DNA of 64,000 nt, from assembly GCA_963845755.1 (NCBI GenBank), contig CAWJTV010000020.1, positions 352,001-416,000 of the forward strand, in the 5' to 3' direction. A program made the translations under genes and the position numbers. The DNA is from an uncultured Planctomycetota bacterium (GTDB taxonomy: Bacteria > Planctomycetota > Planctomycetia > Isosphaerales > Isosphaeraceae). The notes under the pieces were generated by a model, which saw only the letters and a list, made by a program, of their open reading frames with translations, made no database searches and was not told the DNA's origin. Positions 42,933 to 62,592 of this stretch are shown here, in pieces; positions within the stretch are counted from its first letter, which is position 1, and each line of letters opens with the position of its first letter.

Positions 42933-44730
42933 CTACCGCGGCGCCCCGAACATGGGCGAGTGCCGGACGTCGAGCGTCTTGCCATCGCCGAGATACATGT
43001 GGACGCCGCAGGGCAGGCATGGGTCGAAGCTGCGGACGGCGCGCATGATGTCGATCCCCTTGAACTTATCGGGGCCGTTCTCCTCGAAGATCGGCGTGTT
43101 CTGCACGGCGTCTTCATAGGGGCCGGGCGTACCGTAGGTGTCGCGCGGATTGGCGTTCCAGGGAGTCGGCGGGTAGGGGTGATAATTGGCGATCTTCCCA
43201 CCGCGGATCACCACATGGTGCGAGAGCACCCCGCGCACCGCCTCGTGGAAGCCGCAGCCGATCGCCTCGTCGGGGACCTTGAAATCGCTCCAGGTCGCGG
43301 TCCGGCCGGCATTGAGCTCCTTGAACGCCTGCTCCACGAAGTAGAGCGCCGCCGCGGCGGCGTAGACCTGGAAGTAAGTCCGCGCCCGGTCGCGCTCGAT
43401 GGCGTTGCTCCACTTGGGGATCTTCCACTCGAACTCGACTTCCGGCAGCATGGCCGTCTTGGGCAGGTACATCTTGACGCTGTTGCCGGTCGACTTGATG
43501 TAGCCGATGTCGACCAGCCCCGCCAGCGCCGTGGACCAGAGGCGGGCGATCGGACCACCGCCGGTGTCGAGCGCGAGGTGTTCCTTGGTCCGCTTATCGT
43601 ACCATCGCGGCGACATCACCCAGGTGTACTTGCCCTTGAAGTCGCGTTTCTGGGGCTTGGGGATCGTCAACTGGTTCCACGGATGCCGCCGGTCCACCGG
43701 GTTGCCCAGCGGGTCGGTCTTCACGAACGTCTCGGAGTTCTCCCAGTCATCGTAGTACGAGCTGCCCAGGAGGATGCGGATGTTGAGGTTGATGTCGACC
43801 AGGTCGGTGGTGACGAGCTTGCCGTCGACCACCACGCCGGGGGTCACGTACATCGCCGCGGCCCCACTTGGTCATGGTCCTGTAGTCGTAATCGCATACG
43901 TCGGGATTCTGGAACGAGCCCCAGCAGCCCAGCAGGATGCGACGGCGGCCGACCTCCTCGTAGCCGGGCAGCGCCTCGTAGAAAAAGTCGAAGAGGTCGT
44001 CGTGGAGCGGGACGACCTTCTTCATGAACTCGACGTACTTCATCAGCCGGACGAGGTAATCGGTGAAAAGCTGGACGGTCGGCACGGTCCCGACGCCGCC
44101 CGGGTAGAGGGTTGAAGGATGGACGTGCCGCCCTTCCATCAGGCAGAACATCTCCCGGGTCATCCGGCTCATCTGCAAGGCTTCGCGGTAGAAGCTGCCG
44201 GTGAACGGGTTGAGGGCCCTCATGATGTCGGCGATCGTCTTGAAACCATGCAAATGGGCGTGGGGCGACTCGGTGCGCTCGGCTTTCTCCAGCACGCCGG
44301 GATTCGTCTCCTTGACCATCTGCTCGCAGAAGTCGACGCCCACCAGGTTATCCTGGAAGATGTTGTGGTCGAACATGTATTCGGCCGCCTCGCCGAGGTT
44401 GACGATCCATTCTCCGAGGGCGGGCGGTCGGACGCCGAATGCCATGTTCTGGGCGTAGTTGGCGCAGGTGGCGTGGTTGTCGCCGCAAATGCCGCAGATC
44501 CGGCTGGTGATGAAATGGGCATCGCGGGGATCCTTGCCCTTCATGAAGATGCTGTAGCCGCGGAAAATCGACGAGGTGCTGTGGCACTCGGCGACCCGGC
44601 GGCTGGCGAAGTCGATCTTGGTGTAGATGCCCAGGCTGCCGACGATCCGGGTGATCGGGTCCCAGGACATCTCGACCAGGTTCCCGGTCTGGGCGGGGGC
44701 CTCAGGCTCGGTCAGTGTTGCGGTTGCCAT
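42933..44730 (-). CDS. hhyL: [NiFe]-hydrogenase large subunit, group 1h type; frameshift near 43857
   Basis: L1 SRICGICGDNH, L2 SFDPCLPCGVH, WDPITRIVGSLG; C-terminal extension after His. Confidence 0.93.
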
Positions 44731-48781: not shown

Positions 48782-49026
48782 GGCGGCGCCTTCAATTCGT
48801 CCAGTTGATCCATGCTTTCGAGGAACGCGAAGACGCGACGGGCCTCGGCCTCGTCGATGCGCGAAAGCGCGAAGCCCACGTGGACCAGCACGTAATCGTC
48901 GGGGACGGCCTCGGGCACGTGCTCCAGGCACACGCGCCGGGAGACCCCGCCGAACTCGACTTTCCCCATCAGGATGTCGTGTTCGCGATAGGTCTCAACG
49001 ACCTTCCCCGGGATGGCAAGACACAT
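48778..49026 (-). CDS. hypC: Hydrogenase maturation chaperone HypC
   Basis: [16 protein letters not shown]. Confidence 0.96.
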
Positions 49027-51316
49027 CAACACCTCCCTCGGTCATTCGTACCTGGGCCACGGCGATGGCGAGCTGGCCCAGGCACAGTCCGCCGTCGTTC
49101 GGGGGCACGAGATGATGTCGGAAGACTCGGAACCCGTCGCCCGTCAGCCTGACCTCGACTTCGGCCGTCAGAAGGGCATTGAGGAACACACCGCCGCTGA
49201 GCACCACGGCATCGAGCCCGGTCTTCAACCGCAAACGCCCGCAAACCCGCGCCACGACTTCCACGATCGTCGAATGGAACCGTCGGGCGATCTTCGCCGG
49301 CACCACTCCGCGACGGGCCTCATCGGCGATCACGAGGACCATCGGCCGCATGTCGATCACGAGCGGATCCACGTTGCCGGTCTCCAGGATCTCGAACGGA
49401 TAGGCTCCCTCGGGCATGACCTCGGATGCGAGCCACTCCAGCTCCATGGCCGCCTGTCCCTCGAAGCTCACTCGTTGCCGGACACCGGCCAGTGCAGCCA
49501 CCGCATCGAAGAGCCGTCCCATGCTGGTGGTTCGCGGCGCATTGAACCGGCCCTCGATCATCCGCTCAATCAGGCGCCGCGATGGGAGTGGGATGATCTC
49601 TGATAAATTCGCAAGTGTCTTGCCTGCGTCGATCAGATGGGCCGCCGCCATCCGCCAGGGCTCCCGGATCGCCTGTTCGCCGCCGGGCATCCCAACCGGA
49701 CGAAGATGAGCCGATCTGCGATAGTCGCGATAATCCCCCGTCAGAAACTCACCGCCCCAGATGACTCCATCGGTCCCGAACCCGCTGCCGTCAAAGGTGA
49801 CGCCGATCACCGGCTCATCCAGGCCATGCTCGGCCATGCAACTGGCCATGTGCGCGTGATGGTGCTGAACGGCGATCTTCGAGGTCGCGCCCGAATGGTT
49901 CCGTGCATAATTCGTCGATTGATAATCGGCGTGCAAATCGTGGACCAACACCTCTGGCCGCAGGTCGAAAAGCTGTTCGTAATGGTCGATCGCTTCGCGG
50001 TAGGCGCGGTAGGCTTCGTAATGGTCGAGATCGCCGATATGGTGACTGAGGAACGCGTGATGTCCGCGTCCCATCGCGAACGTCGTCTTGAGTTGGCCGC
50101 CGAGGGCGAGGGTCGGCCGTCGGCACTCGACCGGCAGGGAGATCGATCGCGGTGCGTCGCCTCGCGAGCGGCGAATCGGCAACTCGGCCCCGGCGACGAC
50201 CCGCGTCACCGAGTCGTCGCAACGGAGATGAATCGGCCGATCGTGGGTGAGGAAGAAGTCGGCGATCCCTGCCAGACGCTCGCACGCATCCCGATCGTCG
50301 TAAGAGATGGGCTCGTCGGACTGATTCCCGCTCGTCATCACCAAGGGCGTACCGCCTAGCTCGCGCAGGAGCAGATGGTGCAAGGGCGTATAGGGGAGCA
50401 TCACGCCGAGCCAGGGATTGCGCGGTGCGATTCCCTCGGCCAGGCAAACGCTCGCCCGACGGCGCAGCAGGACGATGGGTCGGCGAGGCGCGAGGAGCAG
50501 GGTTTCCTCTTCGGGAGAGACCTCACAAAGCTCGCTGCACTGCGGCGATGTCCACGACCATGATCGCGAACGGCTTCTCGTCGCGATGCTTCCGCCGGCG
50601 GAGCTCGGCCGACAGCCTGCTCGTTCCCCGCGACACAGGCCAGGTGATAGCCGCCCAGTCCCTTGATCGCCCCGATCATCCCCTTCTGGAGGGCCGCGGT
50701 CGCATGCGCGACGGGATCGGCCGTCTCGATCGGTCGTCCCCGATGGTCGAGGTAGGTGAGCTGTGGCCCGCAAGCCGGACAGGCGGTGGGCTGGGCGTGG
50801 AATCGTCGGTTGGTCGGATCCTCGTACTCGGCCCGACAGGCGGGACACATGGCGAAGGCGGCCATGCTCGTCCGCTCGCGGTCGTACGGTGTCCCCGTGA
50901 CGATGGTGAGCCGAGGCCCGCAGTTGGTGCAGTTGAGGAACGGATACCGATATCGGCGGTCGTCGGGATCGAAAAGGTCCGCCAGGCAATCCGCGCAGGT
51001 CGCGATATCGGGCGAGATGAAAATCGGACCGGTCTCGTCGAGCACGCTGGACTCGATCCGGAACGAGAGGTCTCCCACGCGGCGGCTGGGACGACCAGTG
51101 CAGTTCGTCGATCCGGGCCAGGGGCGGCGGCTGGGTCGTCAGCTCGGCGAGGAATCGATCCAGGGAGCTCGGCTCCCCCTCCACCTCGATGAGGACGCCG
51201 CCGGTGCAGTTTCGGATACAGCCACGAAGGCCCAGCCGGGACGCGAGCCGGTAGATGTGGGGTCGAAATCCGACACCCTGGACGATCCCGCTGATGGTGA
51301 TCGCGCGACGGATCAT
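48995..51316 (-). CDS. hypF: Carbamoyltransferase HypF; frameshifts near 51075 and 50600-50540
   Basis: [10 protein letters not shown] acylphosphatase domain; zinc fingers [41 protein letters not shown]. Confidence 0.93.
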
Positions 51317-53657
51317 GCAGCGCGCTCCGGCCGATCGCTTCCTTGCGATGGAGCCACGGTCCGCGAATCGTGGTTGTGCTGGGGTTCTTCTTGTACTTTG
51401 GGGGGTGCCGGTGACCCTGTCAACCCACCGTCCTTCGACCAATGGTGAGACGACGGTATAGCGATGGAGCCGTCATGTCCGATTCCTCGTCGGGCCGATC
51501 GACCTCATGGCACAGCTCATGGTACAAGCAAAAGGGCGGAGGGGACTCGATTCGGATCGTGCAGCCGCAGGAAAGTGTAACCGATCCCGGCGGTTCCCAA
51601 CATCAAGGAGGGGTTTGGGCCGCCGGAGTAAAGGCCCGAGGGCCAGTCGCCCGAGTCTGAGTGGCGGGCGATCAAGGCGCGCGCCGCGGCGAGGGCGCCG
51701 TCGCGACACGATGAATCATCGAGCGTCTCGCCGGCGATGAATAGGATCTCGATCAATCCTCCCAGGCCGTGGCATGGGGTTGCGTCGCACCGCGGCGACG
51801 CGAGTTTCTGCTCGATCGCAACACGGGTCGTAGCGATCCCGACTCGGGCCATCGCGAGGTAGTCGTTCCTACACTCCGGGTCGAGCGTGGCGGCACGCAG
51901 CCGCGCCAGAGCAATCCCGGGTGCCCCATGGCACCAGGCCGTTTCGAAACGCAAGCGGCCCGAGCGACGTTTCCGATCGGCCCAGTTGCCATGTTCCGGT
52001 TCGAACAGCGTATCCTCGAATTCAAATGCTCGACGAGCGGCATCCCGGAAATCGACACGTCCGGTCGCCGCGTGGAGCTCGAGCAAGGCCAGGCCGATTC
52101 CGGCCGCGCCGTGGGAGATACCACTGTAGAGCAACTCGGCGGGCGCCGGATCGGTCGCGGAGTCTCCCTCCTGGGGCTGCAAGACCACTCGCCAGAGATC
52201 GGATCGGATTAGATCCTCACCGAGCGTCGTCGCGAGATCGCAGCAGCGCTCCAGGCCGGGCGACTTGCTCAATACGAGGATGCCGGGATCGCCCCGGCAT
52301 TCCCGGCGATCACGTTGACCATGTGGGGCAAAGAAACCGCCTCGACTACCCGATCCAGTATCGATTCGGCCTGGGCGAATCGTTCCTCGGACCGCGTCAG
52401 GTTCCCCATTCTCCAGGCCACATATGCCACTCCCAGATCCCCGCTGAAGAACGACAGTGGAGAGAGGGGCTGCTTCACGGGCCAACGCTCGAACTGACGA
52501 ATCGAGCGGGCCACGGCTCCGTCGGAAATGCGCCGAAACTCGTCGTCGCCGACCGCCGCATCGAGTTGCGCCAGGAATAGCGCCATGCCTGCGGAGCCCC
52601 CGTAGAGATCCGGTCCGAGGGCTGCCGATGCCGGCGTGATCATGCCATCGGTCTGGGCGACCTCGTCGGTTGATCGGCCGATCCAGTTGCAGAACCGGCC
52701 CTCCCGGTCCCAATATGCCGATCGACAAAGGCTCCGACCGATCTGGATGGCTGCTCCAAGAAGCGACGCTGACGCGGGGTGAGCCGGCCCGAACTTGAAG
52801 GTCTCAGGCGTTCTCTCGCGATCTGCGGTCTTCTCGTCGCTCGCCCAGGCAGACGACAACGCCCCAGGGTCGTAATCTTCCCTCGAACCCGGCCCCAGAT
52901 GAGGTCGGAGTGGATCGAGACTCTGGCGGATGAATGCCGCCGCCAAGGCGTCGGCACGACGACAGCGATCGACTTGCCCGCTCAGGAACGATTGCCATAG
53001 GGACTCCGCAACGAGCTGGCATCGATGTTCGCCGAAACTCAACGAACCGCTCGGGTCTTCCGCGAACCCCAATCCGTCGGCCAGCCGCTTGGTGAAGAGA
53101 GGTACCTCCGGGCGAAGTCCGGATGCCACGCTCGAGTAGATGCGGCCGATGACCGCCTCGACCCGGGCCCGGTATCGGCGGCGCAAATAGATCACGCCTG
53201 CATCGGCGCGGTGGTAAGCGTGCGGGTGTCTGAGCACCTTGACCTGGAATGGGAGCCGCGATTCGTTCAAGAGTGAGGTGGCCGTGGCGATGAACGAGAC
53301 CGCCGCGCTGGCTTTCAAGTGCCAATAATAGCGCACGAGGGAGTCCACCCCATCGCGGCTGCTATCGGAGTCATTCTCTTCATCCCCGATGGCGAGATAG
53401 TAGCCCGGGACCAGATTGCGCAGCTCCTTCGCGACTCGAACCGAACAGATTTCGCCAGGCCGGATCGAGCCGTTCTGAACGCGCACATCCGTCGCCTTTG
53501 CCCAGAACTCGACGCCCTCTCTTGCGACCACAATCCGTCCGTCCTCCGCGAGCCGGAGGACAGACCAACCCGACTCCCAGTGCCCTCGGCCGGCGTTGGC
53601 CGCCGAAAGGGCGGCGAGCAGGTCACGCTCGGCGAGCTCATCGCGCTGGGTTAGGGG

Positions 53658-55149
53658 CAATACCGTTGAAATAGGCGCAAGCCACAGCCTCCTGTTACTT
53701 TGGGTTTACTCACGACCCAAGCAACACGGAGGCCATGACTCGCATGCCGCACGGACATTGCACGCTGCCGCCCGATGCGTCGGGCCGGATCTTGGATCGC
53801 TTGGCGGGACTGGAACAGATTATCTCGCCCGAGGCCGTTCGCCAAGTCCTCGCGGCCACCGGTAAAACCAATCAACGACGTTGCACACTGACCCACGAGA
53901 TTGTTTGCTGGGTGGTCCTGGCCATGGGGCTGTTGACCGACTTGCCGATCCGCCAAGTCTTCAAGCATGCACGCCGGCTCCGAGTCGGCGAGGAGAGTCC
54001 CCATCGATCCAGCCTGTGTGTGGCCCGGCAACGCCTGGGCATCGCGCCGGTCCGCCACCTGTTCGAGCACGTCGTTCATCCTCTGGCCCGGCCCGATACG
54101 CCCGGAGCCTTCTACCGCGGGTTCCGCCTGGTCGGCATCGATGGGACCGTCTACGATGTCCCCGACTCGGAGGCCAACGCCGTGGCCTTCGGCGCCCCTC
54201 GGCCGGGCCGCGCGGCGACGGGGCGTTCCCCCAAGTCCGCAAGCTGAGCCTGGTCGAATTGGGGACCCACATCGAACTGGCCTTCGTGGTCCGGTCGATC
54301 GCCCACGGCGAACCGTCGATGGTCGGCGGCTTGCTCCGCCATCTGACTCCGGAGATGCTCCTGTTGGAGGATCGCGGGTTTTTCAGCTATGACCACTGGA
54401 AAACGGCGATGTTGCGGGGCGTCAAGCTGTTGGCACGCGTGAAAAGCGGCTTGATCCTCAAGTCGATCCAAAACCTGGCGGATGGCTCGTACCTGGCCAA
54501 GATTTATCGGGGTTGCTACGACCGTCAGATCGATCGGGATGGGATCGTCGTCCGGGTGATCCGCTATACACTGGACGACCCGCAACGAGTCGGACACGGT
54601 GAAACTCATGTGCTGATCACGAATCTCCTTGACGCGGAGCTTTATCCTGCTGAAGAATTGATCATTCTTTATCACGAGAGATGGGAACAGGAGTTGGTCT
54701 ATGACGAGCAAAAGACCCATCATGATCCGCGGCGGGCGACCAAGCCGGCACAGATGCGGAGCGAGACCCCGGCGGGGGTGATCCAGGAGATCTATGCGCT
54801 GTCGCTGGGTCATTTCGTGATCCGAGCCTTGATGGTTGCGGCCGCCGGGACCGTGGGGCTGGACCCGGATCGGCTGTCGTTTCTGGGGTGCTTCCAGATC
54901 CTCAAGTGCCGGTTGCCAGAATGCAACAGCTCGACCCCCGAGGCGTTCGAGGAGTGGTATCAGCGGATTATTGTGGGAGATGCAGGGGGAACGCACCGAT
55001 GACGAAGTGCGGAGGAACCGGATCAATCCGCGAGTGATCAAGCGTAAAGATGTCGAAATGGAAGAAGAAACGATCCCAAACATCGACACATTCCGCCCTT
55101 GAAGAAAACCTTTGCAGAGACAGTGGTTATGCTTCGTTAAACGGTATTG
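53658..55149 (+). mobile_element. IS4-family insertion sequence, 1492 bp, 10-bp target-site duplication GGGTTAGGGG
   Basis: Left end CAATACCGTTGAAATAGGC, right end reverse complement CAATACCGTTTAACGAAGC; TSD at 53648-53657 and 55150-55159. Confidence 0.93.
53735..55140 (+). CDS. IS4-family DDE transposase; frameshifts near 54195, 54965 and 55045
   Basis: LVGIDGT, LLLEDRGF, LYHERWEQELVYDEQK (Y-R-E-K signature); N-terminal ARQRLG.APV..LF; stop TAA lies in right TIR. Confidence 0.9.
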
Positions 55150-55359
55150 GGGTTAGGGGAGGCGGGGAAGGTCGGAGATAGAGCCACTCGTAAAGGTGGT
55201 CCGCAAGCGCCAAGGTGAGGAGAGTCGGCCCGGCCGTGGAGGACGATTCGGAGAGGGCGTCGTCCGGGATCTCGCGCAGCCTGCCGAGCAGGGCATAGCG
55301 CGATGGTGACAGGATCTCCACCGCGTCGAGAATCGTCAGGAGATCATCGTGGACAGGAG

Positions 55360-56494
55360 TCATGACGCGACAGCTCCCGGCGGAATCCCGAAGAGTTGCA
55401 CCTGGCCAAGCTCGGGTTCAGCCAGTAGGTTCGCGCTAATCTGTAGCAGGAGCACCGGTTGACCGGTGAGACGGTCCGACTTGCCTGTAAGCTCGTAGGT
55501 CGAACTGGATGAGTCGGACTGCGGCGAACGCCACCGCCCGCCGCAAGAACCCGCCCTCCTCGGCAACCTCGAGACCGGCCGCCGCGCGAATAACCAGCCC
55601 ACAAGGCACGTGATGCGGCCCGCAACTCGTCCAGCGGGACCCGCGCCCGTGCGGTCATCTCCTCGGTGGTCAGCTCATCGGAGAGCGGCATCGAGGAGAC
55701 CCAGAGGACCAGGAAATCCTGCAAGGCACCCGCCAAATCCCATGCAGGATCGCCGATCCGGACCATCTCCCAATCGACGATCCACAGCTCGATGGCGTCA
55801 ACTTCCTCGTCCGCCCGCGGTGACCTGACCAGCACGTTGTCGAACCGGATGTCGCCATGGATCACCGTTTCGGGCCGCCACGACCGCGTCAATCGCTCGA
55901 GGTGTTCGACGAAACCCGCGTTGGCCTGAAGAATCCGCAGGATCTCGAGGTCAGCCCGGCTCAATCCGGCGCAATTCTCGGGCCCCGGTTGGTGAAAAAC
56001 TAGGATTGAGGGCAACGCCGGGGGAGCCAATCCAGACGTGGATCGCGTTCCGGATCCATCAGGCGAAAGTCGCGGTGGAGCGTACCCAGGGCTTGACCGA
56101 GTTCCCGAGCCGCCCGGAGGCTATGGCACCGGCCGCCGTGTTCCGCCGATTTGATCTGAAGCGTCGTGGCATCGGAGATCAACTCGAACACGAGAATGGC
56201 ATCTTCGACACAATTGTGCACAAGCCGCGGAAGAAAATGTGTCAAAGCGGTCGCGGCCGGCTCCTCCCGGCAGAACGTGTGGAATAACAATTCGCGACGA
56301 AGCGTCGCATGGCCGCCATGTGACAGGTGGTCCGGCTGTTTGATCAAGAAGCCCACGCCTTCGGGGCCGTCAACCCTCAGATTCCGATTTCGCCGCGAGA
56401 CGCTGCGGATGGTCAAGGTACCGTCGATGATCCATGCGACTTCGATCAGTCCCCGCTCGAGCAGGAAAGGAACGACACTGTCCACATCAAGCAT
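55360..56494 (-). CDS. APH/choline-kinase-fold phosphotransferase (class V LanK/TvaC-like); frameshifts near 56020, 55590, 55500
   Basis: SRRNRN, FLIKQ, IHGDIRFDNVLV, IVDWEM..IGDPAWDLAG; ATGA overlap with downstream HopA1-LanC start. Confidence 0.85.
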
Positions 56495-56626
56495 CGCGGG
56501 ATGTCTCACGGATGCGGGATTTGCCCCATGACGGTCTCAGTTACAGGCGGGTGTAACCGCATCATTTCGGTCGACAAACAAGCACGACCTGGCGCGGCGG
56601 TGCGAGGGGTGATGCCGCCGGTTTAA

Positions 56627-57137
56627 TCAGTCGAGAAGGCTCCGGATGGGCGAGATCACCGAAGGTGATGGCCTAGGAGTTGGCGTCGGGGAAGAGCAGG
56701 CGGCTTCGCTCGGTACTGGAAAGAGTCCCGACGCGAATCCAAGGACGTCGGTGTTTAGCGCAGACTTGATCGAATTAGCCGACACGATAGAGCCTCTCAG
56801 GAATGACGCCTCGACCGACTGGACGAGCTTGAGGGGCCCATCCAAGTTGACGACGATCCTCGTCGGCTGGGTTTCATCCGACGGGTCGAACGGCTCGAGG
56901 TATAGGATCTTGCCCTTGGGCACCTCGACATAAGCCTGGAACCTCAGATCAAGGTAGATGCGAACCAAACCGTTCGGATCGGTGCGCACCGAGGAACCCG
57001 ACCACTACGACGGTTTCGCGTGGCTCGCCGGAATCCTGCAAGATCCTGGCAACTAGCGGATGTGGAGTGAGAACGACGCCCTGCGCGCCAGGGTAGGACG
57101 GTGTCCCCTTGCTGCTTGGATCCTGCTTATCAGCCAC
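56627..57137 (-). CDS. Candidate RiPP precursor with large leader and Ser/Thr/Pro-rich, one-Cys C-terminal core (~169 aa after removing 1-nt insertion near 56988)
   Basis: ORFs 56949-57137 and 56627-56989 join as ...VVVVGFLGATDPNGLVRIYLDL...SFLRGSIVS...SEAACSSPTPTPRPSPSVISPIRSLLD; first gene upstream of kinase. Confidence 0.6.
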
Positions 57138-57354: not shown

Positions 57355-60300
57355 TCATGGAATCGTCCGCGCGACACGCATCCCGACATCGGGCTCGAAG
57401 GCTGCTGCCTCGGCCCAGGCTTGATTGGCAGATCGTAGTCCGAGCGAGGCCCTACGGAAGGAGGAACCGCGAAGGATGCGGTTTTCACGAAGGACCGTTT
57501 CGCCAAGAATCTCGTCCGCGATCATGCGGCCCGGAATGATGGCAGATTCCGATTGTCGATCGTGACACCACTCGATCACGTTGCCCAACAAATCGAACAG
57601 TCCCAAGTCGTTAGGAAGCAAACTGCCGCAGGGGCGAGTTCGGTGTCCACCCTTGACGCCCGCATTGTCCAGATACCACTCGTAATACGAGAGCAACCCG
57701 GGGGGACTGCCGAAGTAGCGGGACGTCACGGTTCCAGCCCGGCACGCATACTCCCACTCCGCTTGCGTCGGGAGGCGATACCCGCCAGCAGCCACGGCCT
57801 CGGCATCAACACGCATCCCTGCCGCATATTGGCCTTTATCATTCGGCAGGTAGCATGGTCGTAACTTTTCCTTCGCGCCGAGCCAGTTGCAATAGGCAGC
57901 GGCTTCGTACCAGGTCATGTTGGGTTGGGGGCAGTCCGGGGTGGGACTGTACTGTACCTCGTACCCGTGACGCCTCTTATGCGTCTCCATCGTGTATGTC
58001 TGGAAGCTCTCGACGTTCACCTCCCTGGAAGCGATGGCGAATCGCCGGGGGATGAGTCGTCGATGGAACGGTTTGAAATCGCCTCGAGTCGGTTCGGAGC
58101 GCGGCGAGCCCATGTCGAACAGAGCCGGGCCGTCGATGAGGACCATCGTCTGGCCCTCCCGGTTGACGTACCAGCGCCGGCGGATCGCTTCACCGGCCCG
58201 AGGTGGCTGTCCGGGCTCGAGATTGAGCCGATCGACGTACCCCCATCGTCTCAGGACCAGCTCTGCCGACGAGTGGACGCCTCCGTCAGGATCGTTTCGA
58301 TACAACTTGATCAGAGTCTGGATCAATCGAGATGGTTCTTCGGGGCCGAGGGCCGTCTTCGGATACGCCGCCAATGCCTGGATGAGTGCCCGTTGCCGCG
58401 AGATCAACGGGTCGAAGAGGTAAGAGTTCTTCTCCGAGACCGCTCCCACGTCCTCGCCAAGTCGCTCGAGCTCCACCGCGAGGATCGAGGGGTCTGCGCC
58501 ATAGGGTGCGAGCGCAGTGATGAAATTGCTTCGCACTTCCGGGTCCTTGCTGTGTTCGAGCAACTTCCAGACCTCCTTGTCGGAACCCAGGCGGACCAGG
58601 GCTACTGCCGCTCTTGCCCGGCGCGGATCGCCGAGTCGCGGCCATGCCGCCTTCACTCGGCTGGTGGCCCTCCTTTCCGGAAGCCGGAGACACGGCGGGG
58701 CTCATCCTGCCCATCGAAGCGGGCTGCGTAGACTCTAATTCCTTATGGAGGTCCAGGAGGACTGCCGCAGGATCTCTTTGGATCACGTTGAAAAACAGGG
58801 AGAACGCCTTAGGATCCGCATCGAGCATGACATCGAGCAGATCATTCGGTCTGCCGGCGGCGTAGCGGGACAGAAACTCGGTCGCCAGGTTATGTTCGCC
58901 CTCGGGACGGCCTTCATCGCGAAAGATCCGTTTCAAGGGATCCAAGAGGTAGAGATGGACGCTCGACATGGCATCGAGCCAGCCTTTCGCGTCGAACTGC
59001 CCCCGACCATCGCGCCCGCGACGATGTCGGCGACCTCCGACCAATGCCGATTCGTCGCGTCGTAATCTGCCAGGAGGCCCGCCAAGGGGAGGATCCGGTT
59101 GTCGCCGGGCCTGGCACCCCGCAAGTCACGCCACGACCGATCGAGCAGCATGCCCCGATAAGGTCCCAGGCAAACCCGGAGCACCGCCATCTCGCTCGAG
59201 TCGACGACCGTGTTGGGCGACTTGTCAGGGACCAGGTAGTTGTAGAGGTAATCGACCGGCTCGTCGTTGAACGCAAGGAGAGCGAGGCTGGCGTGAAGCT
59301 TCTGTTTGGTGCGATTCGGCGCCTCGAGGACGATGCGCCTGAGCTCCGGATAGGTCCACCGTCGGAACGCCCAGATCTCGTGAACGATGTCGGGCACTTC
59401 GGCGATCTCGGCCGTGAGGAGCTGTTGCATCAAACCAGCGGCATGGGTTTCCGCGTTGGCCTCGATGAATCGATGACGGATCATGAGTCCCGCGACGAGG
59501 AGGCCGGCGAGCAGGACTGCCCCACCGAGGCCACGGAGCCCGATAATCCAGTCCGCCCGCCTCATCATCCGGCCCTGAGACTCGGTCCACCCCTTTGGCT
59601 TCGTCAGCGACCGGATCGAGAGCCACTCCACGGCCGAGGGCAGGTAACGGTCCTCCGGCTTGGCGTTCCACATCGCCGCGCGCTCCGCCAGCCGGAGTTC
59701 AGCCCGACCTTGGCGGGTCTCGCGTTGCTTGCGCGTCAACCAGTCGCGCAAGGCATGGACCAGGTAATCGTGTGTGAGTTGGTAGCAGCGGCCAGCCGCC
59801 GCGTGAGACGGCATGTCCTCATCGATCGAGCCCTCGGGATCGACGGGTGTGATCAGCCGAAGCTCATTGTCAAGCATGCGGATCAGGTCGATGAAGTCCG
59901 CGCGGGCGATCTCCGTATCCCGATAGACCTCGCAGTTCCTCGATCGATCGCATCCGCCCTTTGATATCCGCGTTCGACTCGGGCAGGAGCGCCTTCAGGA
60001 CGGCCTGCGCCGCCTTCTGGTGATATCGGTGATTTGGGTTGGCTCGCGGCGAGCTGAAGGTCTCCTCCAGGAACGTGACTCCGACTCCGTCCATGCCGCC
60101 GACTTCCCGCAAGGTTGCAGGGACCCAAGCCTTCCTCTTGACCATCTCGGCGAACAGTGCCAGCCGAACCGGGACGACTCGACTATCCTGCGCCAGCCCG
60201 TCGACCGCCTGATCGAGGAAGGCGCGCTGCTCACGGGTAAGGTCGTCGGCCCGCGGCGGCAAGGCTTCGTAAGCGCGCCCGTAGGCCGCCAGGACCTTGC

Positions 60301-62300
60301 GGGCGTGCTTCGGATCGAAGAGGTCGACAGCCGCGACGTTACGATCGGGGACCAGGTCGATCTCGAGGTCTCTCATCAATCGGGTCGCGGCCATCCAGAA
60401 GTCGTCGCGCACGAGGCAGAGGGCCTGGAGATGTTCGCCGTCGCATTGCCGCAGCGCCGCGACCAACTCGGCTGCCGGCTCACCATGATGGGCGAAAAGC
60501 CACTGCTCGAACTGGTCGAGGACCAACAAGACCTTCCGGTCGTGCGTGATGCCCTGGCCGCGCCGGAGGCTCGCCAGCGATTCGACCAGCCCGACGTCGG
60601 CGGGCAGGCTGGGAAACCGCTTGCGGACGCCCCGGAGCAATCGCGCCTCCGTCTCGCCGACGGTCGACTCGACGTAGACCGTCGCGACGTGTTGGCCTAG
60701 CATGGGCAGCAGCCCCGCCTTGACGAGCGACGACTTGCCGCAGCCCGATGGCCCGTAGATGAGCCCGACTCGGAACGTCCTGTCCGGATCGGTTGCCTCA
60801 ATCCGCGTCTTCCAGAACCGCAGTCCTTCGGGGAGCCCTTCGCGATCGCGAGGGCCGGGGAGGAGCTCGAGGAAGAAGTCGGCATCGTTTTCGTCGAAGG
60901 ACCCTAGCCCCTTCGGGACGATCCGGATCGAAAGGAGGATCGAATCCGATGATGCCGGGATGAGGGTCGGCGAGCCTTCGGTCGTCGTCGGTGTCGAGAC
61001 GGTCTTTGCTGCTGGGCTCACGCCGTGCATCGACATCGTCCGCAACTTCGATTCGAGGAAGTGCCGCAAGTCCTCGGCGAGGTCCCTGGCGGTGGCATAT
61101 CGCTCGGAAGATCGTTTGGAAAGCGATTTCAGGCAGATCCGCTCGAGTTCCCGGGGAATCGTGTCGTCGATCTGCCGCGGCGGGCGGGGCTCGGCGTGGA
61201 TGATCTGCTCCATGACCTGGTCCTTCGACGAACCCCGAAACGGTCGGCGGCCGGTCAGCAGCTCGTAGAGGACGACGCCGAGGCTGAAGATGTCCGAGCG
61301 CCCGTTCGACGCGATGCGCTTCACCACGCGCCTGCTCCGGACTCATGTACGCCGCCGTGCCAAGGTGGCGCGATCCCTTTCCCAGGTTTTCCTCCTTCAA
61401 GGCCAGGCCGAAATCCGCCAGGTATGGTGCACCGTGGGCATCGAGCAGGATATTCGCGGGCTTGATGTCCCGGTGAAAGAGGTCATGAATATGAGTGTAG
61501 TGCAGTGCCTCGCAGAGGACCGCGATCATCTCGGCGGCCTCGGCAACGGCAAGCCGTCCGCGACGAAGCCGGGCGGCGAGGTCGCCCCCATCCATATACT
61601 TGGACACCACGTAACAGTGGCCGTCCTCGGTGCGGCCCACGTCGTAGACCGGCACGATGTTCGGATGGGAGAGCCGGGCGATGATCCGGGCTTCCTCGAG
61701 GTAGGACTCAACATCCAGGAACCAAGACGACTGTGAGTGTACCGGCTTCTTAATCGCGACGTCGCGGTCGAGCTCGGCGTCGTGCGCCAGGTAGACTCGC
61801 CCGAACCCGCCCTCGCCGAGGACCCGGATCACCCGGTATCGGCCGATGGAACTCGGACATGGGTCCGGCCCGGTCTTGTTCGCCGCTCGGTCACCGTCAT
61901 CTCGGGCCAGAACAGGCGGGTCCGACGAAGGATGTCCCGGAAGGACTCCCGGATCGGCCACGGGTTCCACTGGTGAGTGCTTCAGGAAGGCATACAGCCG
62001 TTTCTGCCGTTCGGTTCTTTCACGCAGCGCTTCCAACAATTCGGGGTCATTGACACCGAGAGACTCCGGGGAAGCGTCCTCGCCGCGACCATAGCGCTGT
62101 TCCCACTGCGCGAGGAAGTCGAGAAGACGGTCATCCCGGTCATCGCTGGGCCCCATCCATACTTCGCCACGCTCGATCTTGGGCTTGCGCAGGGACTCCC
62201 TTTGGGTGTCCTCGCTCGTGGACTGCGCGGGGGTCTCACCGGCCTGGGCGCCGGCCTCAATTCGGGGAGTGGGCTGTGAGTCCGCGTCGGGGTCGTTCAT
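57355..62300 (-). CDS. Ser/Thr kinase - nSTAND1-like P-loop NTPase - TM - helical region - FGE/sulfatase-modifying-factor domain protein; several frameshifts (~61315, 59895, 59000, 58660)
   Basis: LGEGGFG, HRDIKPANILL, DFGLA, YMSPEQARG; PKGL.SFD, GPSGCGKSSLVKAG, LDQFEQ; RLPTQAEWEYACRAG, FDLLGNVIEWC, GMRVART. Confidence 0.85.
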
Positions 62301-62329
62301 CGGCCGCTCCGCTCGATCGTCCCGTAATG

Positions 62330-62592
62330 TCAGAAGGGTGTATTCGATCCATCCAGCCAGTGCGCGGCACGGTCGCTTCCAGGGCGACGACCAGCCGCAT
62401 CCAGACCTCGCTGACGACGCTTTCCAGGTCGTGACGGCCGTGCAGGCCGGAGAAATCGTCCTGATAGATCCGGGCGGCGATTCGCAACATGCGGTCGTGG
62501 GCGCGCTCCAGTAACTCGCACCGAGCCGTGATATCGCCACGGCGGAGCCGGTCGATCAGATTCTTGAGGTTAGCCGAAGTGTCGCCTACCAC
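62330..62592 (-). pseudogene. ECF-type sigma factor remnant with large internal deletion
   Basis: N-terminal LIDRLRRGD..ARCELLERAHDRMLRIA...DLESVVSEVWMRL (region-2-like) followed almost at once by HWLDGSNTPF* in another frame; no region 4 HTH. Confidence 0.6.

Follow-up and report, generated by a model that had tools for sequence, protein, structure and literature searches.

A fused-gene, insertion-disrupted class Vb-type lanthipeptide locus in a soil planctomycete and the leader-domain family of its candidate precursor

A 64,000-nt stretch of contig CAWJTV010000020.1 (positions 352,001–416,000 of assembly GCA_963845755.1; hereafter, the window, in whose numbering all its coordinates are given) from an uncultured soil planctomycete of the Isosphaeraceae contains a putative lanthipeptide-type operon, all three genes of which lie on the minus strand within positions 51517–57137. 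The first gene encodes a small LanA-like precursor candidate of ~169 aa (56627–57137, assembled from open reading frames (ORFs) 56949–57137 and 56627–56989), the second, a LanK-type kinase of the APH family (55360–56509, ORF pieces 56000–56509 and 55344–56030), and the third is a lanY-lanC fusion (51517–55363, ORF pieces 55127–55363, 52269–53660 and 51517–52728). In the product of the latter a HopA1-like phosphoSer/Thr lyase domain (LanY part, 52896–53417) is followed by a LanC-type cyclase domain (51517–52619), with a single window ORF carrying HopA1 together with the start of LANC_like. The fusion gene is cut by an IS4-family insertion sequence (IS) of 1,492 bp on the plus strand (53658–55149); its 5' part, encoding residues 1 to ~71, was located at 55150–55363 by tblastn with intact relatives (residues 1–64). 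At 55363–55360 of the minus strand the kinase TGA overlaps the ATG of the fusion gene in an ATGA, and through this overlap the two genes are translationally coupled.

The kinase matches Pfam APH (PF01636, 6.2e-11) and has both a VIHGDIRFDN catalytic loop (HGDxxxxN type) and a Mg-binding VDWE motif; in the family alignment (A4), positions H217, D219, N224 and D245-W246-E247 are near-invariant. The top NCBIfam model for both kinase halves is LxmK (NF038156), with 62 bits (4.9e-17) and 28.9 bits (5.9e-07), the window kinase having been scored as fragments and both scores being far under the 315-bit cut-off. The kinase family profile matches chain A (LxmK) of PDB 9dk1 at 1.3e-19, and the lyase-cyclase profile matches chain B (LxmY) of the same entry at 1.7e-19; according to the review PMC12141560, 9DK1 is the LxmK-LxmY lexapeptide dehydratase. 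The lyase domain itself matches Pfam HopA1 (PF17914) at 4.5e-37, and its motifs RYYWH, QVKVL and YHRADAGVIY match the invariant columns R177, K208 and R218 of alignment A1. It keeps the equivalents of Arg187, Lys219, Arg229 and Tyr236 of the cacaoidin lyase CaoY with the same spacing (31, 10, 7). As PMC9486802 reports, mutating Arg187, Lys219 or Arg229 in CaoY impaired elimination, and Tyr236 is conserved. The window kinase and lyase are homologues of the class V dehydratase pair.

In the LanC part (Pfam LANC_like, 3.5e-09 and 2.5e-34) the SHG, WCHG and CHG motifs are kept, that is, the acid/base His and the Cys-Cys-His zinc ligands, and H580, W639-C640 and C693-H694 are invariant in alignment A1. 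The catalytic motifs of the kinase, lyase and cyclase are all intact. Taken together, the domain matches and the overlapping stop and start codons bear out the original prediction, made from the letters alone, of three co-oriented genes with a class V-type APH and HopA1 dehydratase pair and a LanC cyclase. The LanC profile matches LicM2 (the LanM cyclase domain, 2.3e-29) and NisC (4.6e-14), and also LANCL1 and LANCL2. Eukaryotic LanCL proteins cap dehydroamino acids with a small thiol, and the locus might by analogy be a protein-repair or regulatory module, where the kinase and lyase make dehydroamino acids on cellular proteins and LanC caps them; the failure to find export and protease genes among the neighbouring ORFs scanned would fit such a function. 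We consider it very improbable, as the LanC part is closer to the LanM and NisC cyclases than to LanCL, and most of the related loci have a dedicated, co-transcribed, hypervariable partner gene, which is described below.

Relatives of the lyase-cyclase protein are numerous. A word-indexed search with a 463-aa piece yielded 207 of them; most of the 120 listed are 700–811 aa long with both domains, and several among the matches listed are named Isosphaerales, Isosphaeraceae or Gemmataceae. Scanning one genome per species gave 480 relatives, and 79 loci (designated by L-numbers) were kept for comparison. These span at least ten phyla in all, including Planctomycetota, Myxococcota, Acidobacteriota, Chloroflexota, Gemmatimonadota, Bacteroidota, Verrucomicrobiota, Pseudomonadota and Actinomycetota, as well as one archaeon. 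Both the lyase and the cyclase parts are matched in 62 of the 79 loci, and the kinase is directly upstream in 58 of these 62, the remaining four having less than 600 nt of DNA upstream. As this gene order recurs in 58–59 loci of other genomes, it is not a matter of chance. Clustering of ORFs of the 79 loci with BLAST produced, besides antisense shadow ORFs, three widely common families: the lyase/cyclase (79 loci), the kinase (58 loci) and a family of proteins encoded upstream (49 ORFs in 38 loci).

The lyase and the cyclase are fused in ten of the 58 kinase-bearing loci (L002, L007, L011, L012, L018, L031, L035, L047, L063 and L066), their genes overlap by 4 nt in 18, and the remainder are separate or ambiguous; L010, L014, L037, L059 and L061 were counted as split, since a separate LanC ORF is present despite an automatic fused tag. 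The fusion is thus a recurrent variant within a mostly split family. An intact split set is seen in a cultured isolate, Mesorhizobium cantuariense (L008:8001–10327), with a precursor containing four Cys, LanK, LanY and LanC, which would make this strain convenient for experiments. Within the taxonomic family of the window, HopA1 genes are present in five of 36 other genomes, and a leader gene precedes the kinase in five of six further loci, with cores containing from 0 to ~22 Cys. In the nearest relative of the window locus, L002, a second precursor and kinase pair (L002:15275–17156) lies ~9 kb from the first one.

Two class V types are distinguished in passages of PMC11186320 and PMC12291118: class Va, with LanK, LanY, LanD and LanX and without LanC, and class Vb, with LanK, LanY and LanC, forming lanthionine rings only. 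Class Vb is represented there by SmoK/SmoY/SmoC with the precursor SmoA from Streptomyces (Pei et al., 2022, J Am Chem Soc 144:17549, as cited in passages of PMC11186320, PMC12291118 and PMC12328550), mSmoA being, in the same passages of the first two, the sole characterised product. The window locus resembles the Smo system in its APH-type LanK, HopA1-type LanY and LanC and in the lack of LanD (flavin Cys decarboxylase) and LanX (a second APH-like protein), neither of which was found among 18 neighbouring ORFs scanned at 40.5–64 kb or in the families common to related loci. Hence, the original prediction of a possibly undescribed sub-class does not stand: the set of LanK, LanY and LanC without LanD and LanX is already named class Vb in those passages, so by enzyme content the window locus is class Vb and no new sub-class. 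It differs from the Smo system, as the reviews describe the latter, in the joining of LanY and LanC in one polypeptide (SmoY and SmoC are named separately), in its planctomycete host, in having just one Cys in the core and in the IS that interrupts the fusion gene. The window precursor has a folded leader domain of ~100 aa, which may be a further difference.

Other lanthipeptide classes are more distant. Class Va systems, e.g., LxmK/LxmY of lexapeptide (PDB 9DK1-3) and CaoK/CaoY of cacaoidin, share a homologous kinase and lyase encoded by adjacent and coupled genes, and possibly the binding of the leader by the kinase, which is stated for CaoK in a passage of PMC12328550 and modelled here for a relative (L004, see below); unlike them, the window has a zinc LanC and lacks LanD, LanX, F420 reductase, methyltransferase, transporter and protease. 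The scan of the 18 ORFs likewise revealed no decarboxylase, methyltransferase, transporter or protease, in line with the minimal cluster originally described, and the gene families common to the related loci include none of these either. Class IV LanL (e.g., CuvL, PDB 8car) also combines a kinase, a phospho-lyase and then a zinc LanC, and the window LanC part has weak matches to NF038150 and 8car, but the window kinase is APH and not Pkinase, the lyase is HopA1-like and not OspF-like, and the activities are divided between two polypeptides (K and a Y-C fusion), not united in a single lyase-kinase-cyclase chain.

Class V is so far known from actinobacteria only, according to the review PMC12328550; Kloosterman et al. 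(2020; PMC7794033) noted distant homologues of the kinase/HopA1 pair in Cyanobacteria, Planctomycetes and Proteobacteria. Our literature searches, whose coverage did not extend to the primary class Vb paper, found no description of a LanY-LanC fusion, the leader domain or giant cores. A term search for wording on precursor size or repeats had no match in Walker et al. (2020; PMC7268733). The window locus is a fused-gene, IS-disrupted class Vb variant in a phylum new to class Vb.

Of greater interest is the family to which the precursor candidate belongs. The small protein of the window consists of an N-terminal beta-rich leader domain, followed by a Ser/Thr/Pro-rich core of ~50 aa, IKSALNTDVLGFASGLFPVPSEAACSSPTPTPRPSPSVISPIRSLLD, with one Cys and 14 Ser/Thr; as this is the only Cys of the core, the product could contain one ring at most. 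A short-read contig identical to the window over 56517–56667 confirms the last part of the core. The conserved motif FLRGSI (context EASFLRGSIV) is at 56786–56803, and the protein aligns with 38 leader domains from other loci, being the only leader-domain gene copy found in the window genome. The window protein has no Pfam family, and a metagenome scan for its close relatives gave 591 pattern matches, none of which was confirmed.

In the related loci, the upstream proteins are 91–917 aa long with 0–83 Cys. They have a common N-terminal domain of ~100 aa with the consensus ...LxGFxGxSxxxGxxRLYLDxxLxxYxEIP...VWV...AxFLxGxI, and, C-terminal to it, a hypervariable part that can reach ~800 aa and is in most cases rich in Cys/Ser/Thr/Pro, with frequent repeats. 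A hidden Markov model (HMM) of the leader matches 35 of 59 kinase-bearing loci, in all cases on the same strand and just upstream of or abutting the kinase; of the 24 loci missed, six have less than 700 nt of upstream DNA. When 1.84 billion representative proteins were searched, 3,529 matched the profile at E ≤ 0.001, and 2,393 of them still did so at E ≤ 1e-10. Among the best 150 of the 3,529 representatives, nearly every protein has the domain at its N-terminus; the median length of these 150 proteins is 309.5 aa (range 115–846), and the part following the domain contains at least two Cys in 139, at least ten in 103, and none in seven. The window protein thus belongs to a large family of proteins with a leader and a Cys-rich core. 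The ~169-aa protein taken by the original prediction for the substrate is a credible large-leader precursor.

No Pfam or NCBIfam model covers the leader domain in the six to eight precursors scanned, a weak zf-HIT match to one precursor having been disregarded as a family assignment. AlphaFold2 predicts the leader protein as a beta-rich domain with a mean pLDDT (predicted local distance difference test) of 77.7, exceeding 84 at residues 11–100 and falling to ~50 afterwards. Comparison of this fold with PDB by Foldseek gave no match at E ≤ 0.001, the best Z in VIA-align over 48,161 chains was 3.6, so that no fold was assigned, and the ESM Atlas contains it in unnamed clusters only, recognition there being below a useful level. 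The leader profile had no match in 300 other Planctomycetota genomes with 14 candidates scored per genome, and since just 14 were scored this indicates rarity at most.

For the Myxococcaceae locus L004, the complex of LanK, LanY and the leader was modelled, with an own alignment for each protein. The complex score is 0.78, compared to 0.19 for the best control; among reference cases, 116 of 157 solved complexes and two of 215 mismatched pairs score this high. At least 73% of contacts are shared between the runs, with a partner pLDDT of 64 or more. In the modelled interface, leader residues 100–127 (QTIEASYLRGRIARDYL..., with the FLxGxI motif) face kinase residues 268–288 and 342–374. The model supports binding of the leader to the kinase.

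These data also bear on the possibility that the small protein is an accessory, scaffold or immunity protein, while the substrate is encoded elsewhere or is cellular. Its folded domain (pLDDT above 84 at residues 11–100) is unusual for a leader, the window and L002 copies contain almost no Cys, and some loci have a second, leaderless Cys-rich ORF. Set against this are the conserved N-terminus and the hypervariable, usually Cys/Ser/Thr-rich C-terminus, a combination that constitutes a precursor signature, the modelled contact with the kinase through the motif that immediately precedes the variable segment, and the occurrence of a related domain before an FDLD-like box and Cys/Thr-rich cores beside LanB/LanC in Streptomycetaceae. 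A non-substrate role is, in our opinion, improbable, and the small protein of the window is very probably the precursor.

Very large upstream proteins, of 597–917 aa with 53–83 Cys, were observed in L037:4062–6815, L050:4009–6603, L028:4365–6743, L010:4426–6717, L023:4002–6074 and L061:5114–6907. Their giant cores contain tandem motifs, e.g., GPTGWxGCT, TAATVCTQIGC and CPS/CQS repeats, some of which are common to Bacteroidota, Gemmatimonadota and Chloroflexota loci. A different arrangement is seen in L025:5641–6672, L024:5028–6785 and L048:5760–6701 (Undibacterium, Kordia), where a short leader-bearing precursor is followed by a long leaderless Cys-rich ORF.

In a Streptomycetaceae sample, a related domain was found in nine of 301 genomes. 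In L113 (9050–11358 and 15596–17794) and L114 (4458–9855), the two loci examined in full, it precedes a core rich in Cys and Thr, with LanC and LanB genes adjacent; LanK had no match in these two loci. The leader-HMM match there covers positions ~11–100, with DEFDLDLRL in place of FLxGxI, and we take DEFDLDLRL to resemble the FNLD-type box of class I leaders. These class I clusters are similar to the window locus in the N-terminal beta-rich domain, the Cys/Thr-rich core and the adjacent LanC, and differ in that their dehydratase is LanB, of the glutamyl-tRNA type. It seems, then, that one leader scaffold works with two unrelated dehydratases, LanK/LanY and LanB. A broader proposal, which we make tentatively and with somewhat less than even confidence, is that a leader domain with an exchangeable docking motif (FLxGxI where the class V kinase is addressed, and an FDLD-like box in the case of class I LanB) delivers protein-sized cores, up to ~800 residues with more than 80 Cys and in many cases built of tandem repeats, to the lanthionine machinery. 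The products would then be poly-thioether proteins and not peptides, and the window operon would be one disabled member of a 'lanthi-protein' system present in at least ten phyla.

The chemistry, docking and product of the window system, as we infer them, would be the following. The FLxGxI motif at the end of the beta-rich leader may dock on the C-terminal helices of LanK, as suggested by the model; LanK would phosphorylate Ser/Thr of the C-terminal core; the HopA1-like domain is predicted to eliminate the phosphate, producing dehydroalanine or dehydrobutyrine; and the fused zinc LanC would add Cys thiols, yielding (methyl)lanthionine rings.

In the window organism itself this pathway is most likely not functional. 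The IS splits the fusion gene between the codons for residues ~71 and ~72, and the protein sequence flanking it on both sides continues as in uninterrupted relatives; the L002 locus, the closest relative with 86% identity, has no IS at the corresponding site. The element is a member of the IS4 family: its transposase matches Pfam Nterm_IS4 (1.4e-18) and DDE_Tnp_1 (6.5e-07), its ends are 13-nt inverted repeats flanked by the 10-bp direct repeat GGGTTAGGGG (53648–53657 and 55150–55159), and the genome contains 17 full-length copies, including the window one, at 98–100% identity. Five other copies were examined; four of them are flanked by 10-bp duplications of their own, centred on TTA(A/G), and four keep an open frame of 487 codons. 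In the window copy, 12 substitutions and three single-base insertions are unique, and the transposase frame is disrupted, features that make this copy look older.

One short-read contig of a soil metagenome run extends across the left IS junction (53571–55149); another short-read contig represents an internally deleted form of the IS, with position 53785 joined to 55092. Matching sequences in the four soil-metagenome runs come mostly from the multi-copy IS, the unique parts of the locus being present only in 151-nt contigs of depth 2–4, and the absence in them of a contig across the uninterrupted target site is uninformative in either direction. The interrupted fusion is the only HopA1-family gene found in the window genome, a fact that, like the single-Cys core, was missing from the original prediction. 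As the sole lanYC gene is interrupted, the product of the locus is not expected in the window organism, barring an uninterrupted allele; lanYC is interrupted after codon ~71, and the system is most likely inactive in this genome. The window copy, being probably dead, has little value as a producer.

Besides the IS, tblastn with intact relatives revealed five frameshifts within 5.6 kb: one in the precursor gene (near 56975–56985), three in the kinase gene, which is thereby divided into four frame segments (near 56012–56024, 55589 and 55502), and one in the LanC part (near 52284). As had been anticipated, annotation of the locus is broken up by the IS and the indels. Such damage could mean that the whole locus is a decaying relic, with real frameshifts accumulated after the IS insertion and the low-Cys core a degenerate remnant. 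The degenerate IS copy, pointing to an old insertion, fits this explanation, as does the single Cys in the window core versus 4 to ~22 in four of five relatives from the same taxonomic family. Yet a short-read contig of 151 nt has one extra base exactly at 56018/19 and a second contig has one base fewer at 55589, both being otherwise identical to the window; these two positions are frameshift sites of the kinase gene, two out of its three.

Furthermore, unrelated neighbouring genes are fragmented as well, namely HypF (48995–51442, with the zinc-finger part in another frame, 50401–51078), a Ser/Thr kinase/STAND gene (59870–62540) and the NiFe hydrogenase large subunit (43747–44730), indicating pervasive indel errors in the assembly. 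The window genome is 87.9% complete in 49 contigs, which together with these breaks is typical of long-read consensus error, and breaks of a similar kind are present in the source of L002, a long-read metagenome-assembled genome. Given also that all catalytic motifs are intact, decay of the whole locus is unlikely. The frameshifts are probably not real, at least not all of them, with at least two looking like assembly errors, and most likely they are consensus errors of long-read sequencing.

As a whole, the data are best explained by a cyclase-containing class V-type operon, with 'class Vb' enzymology and the gene order lanA-lanK-lanYC, and we estimate the probability of this interpretation as roughly 80%. 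Several observations weigh against it. The window core has a single Cys, and the precursors of L002 have none in one case and one in the second, so the cyclase seems under-used in the sub-clade formed by these two. The leader HMM has no match in 18 kinase-bearing loci for which sufficient upstream DNA is available. A protease or exporter to release the product was found neither among the neighbours nor among the families common to the related loci. The solved LxmKY structures may have helped the L004 complex to its score, and the alignments used for it are outside the calibration of the tool. Finally, the short-read contigs have a depth of 2–4 and may derive from a related or sister strain.

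Downstream of the operon are HypF, HypC, HypD, a HypE-like gene and NiFe hydrogenase genes, and upstream, genes with FGE-sulfatase domains and STAND/Ser-Thr-kinase genes.

The window locus ties class Vb enzymology to a far wider set of operons from at least ten phyla and an archaeon, in which the candidate substrates are not short peptides but proteins that combine a folded leader domain with a Cys-rich core of great length and repetitive sequence. If the proposed chemistry is true, the size range of lanthionine-modified products would widen, the leader domain would provide a new handle for genome mining, and the family would present a natural case of a single leader scaffold re-addressed to two unrelated dehydratases.

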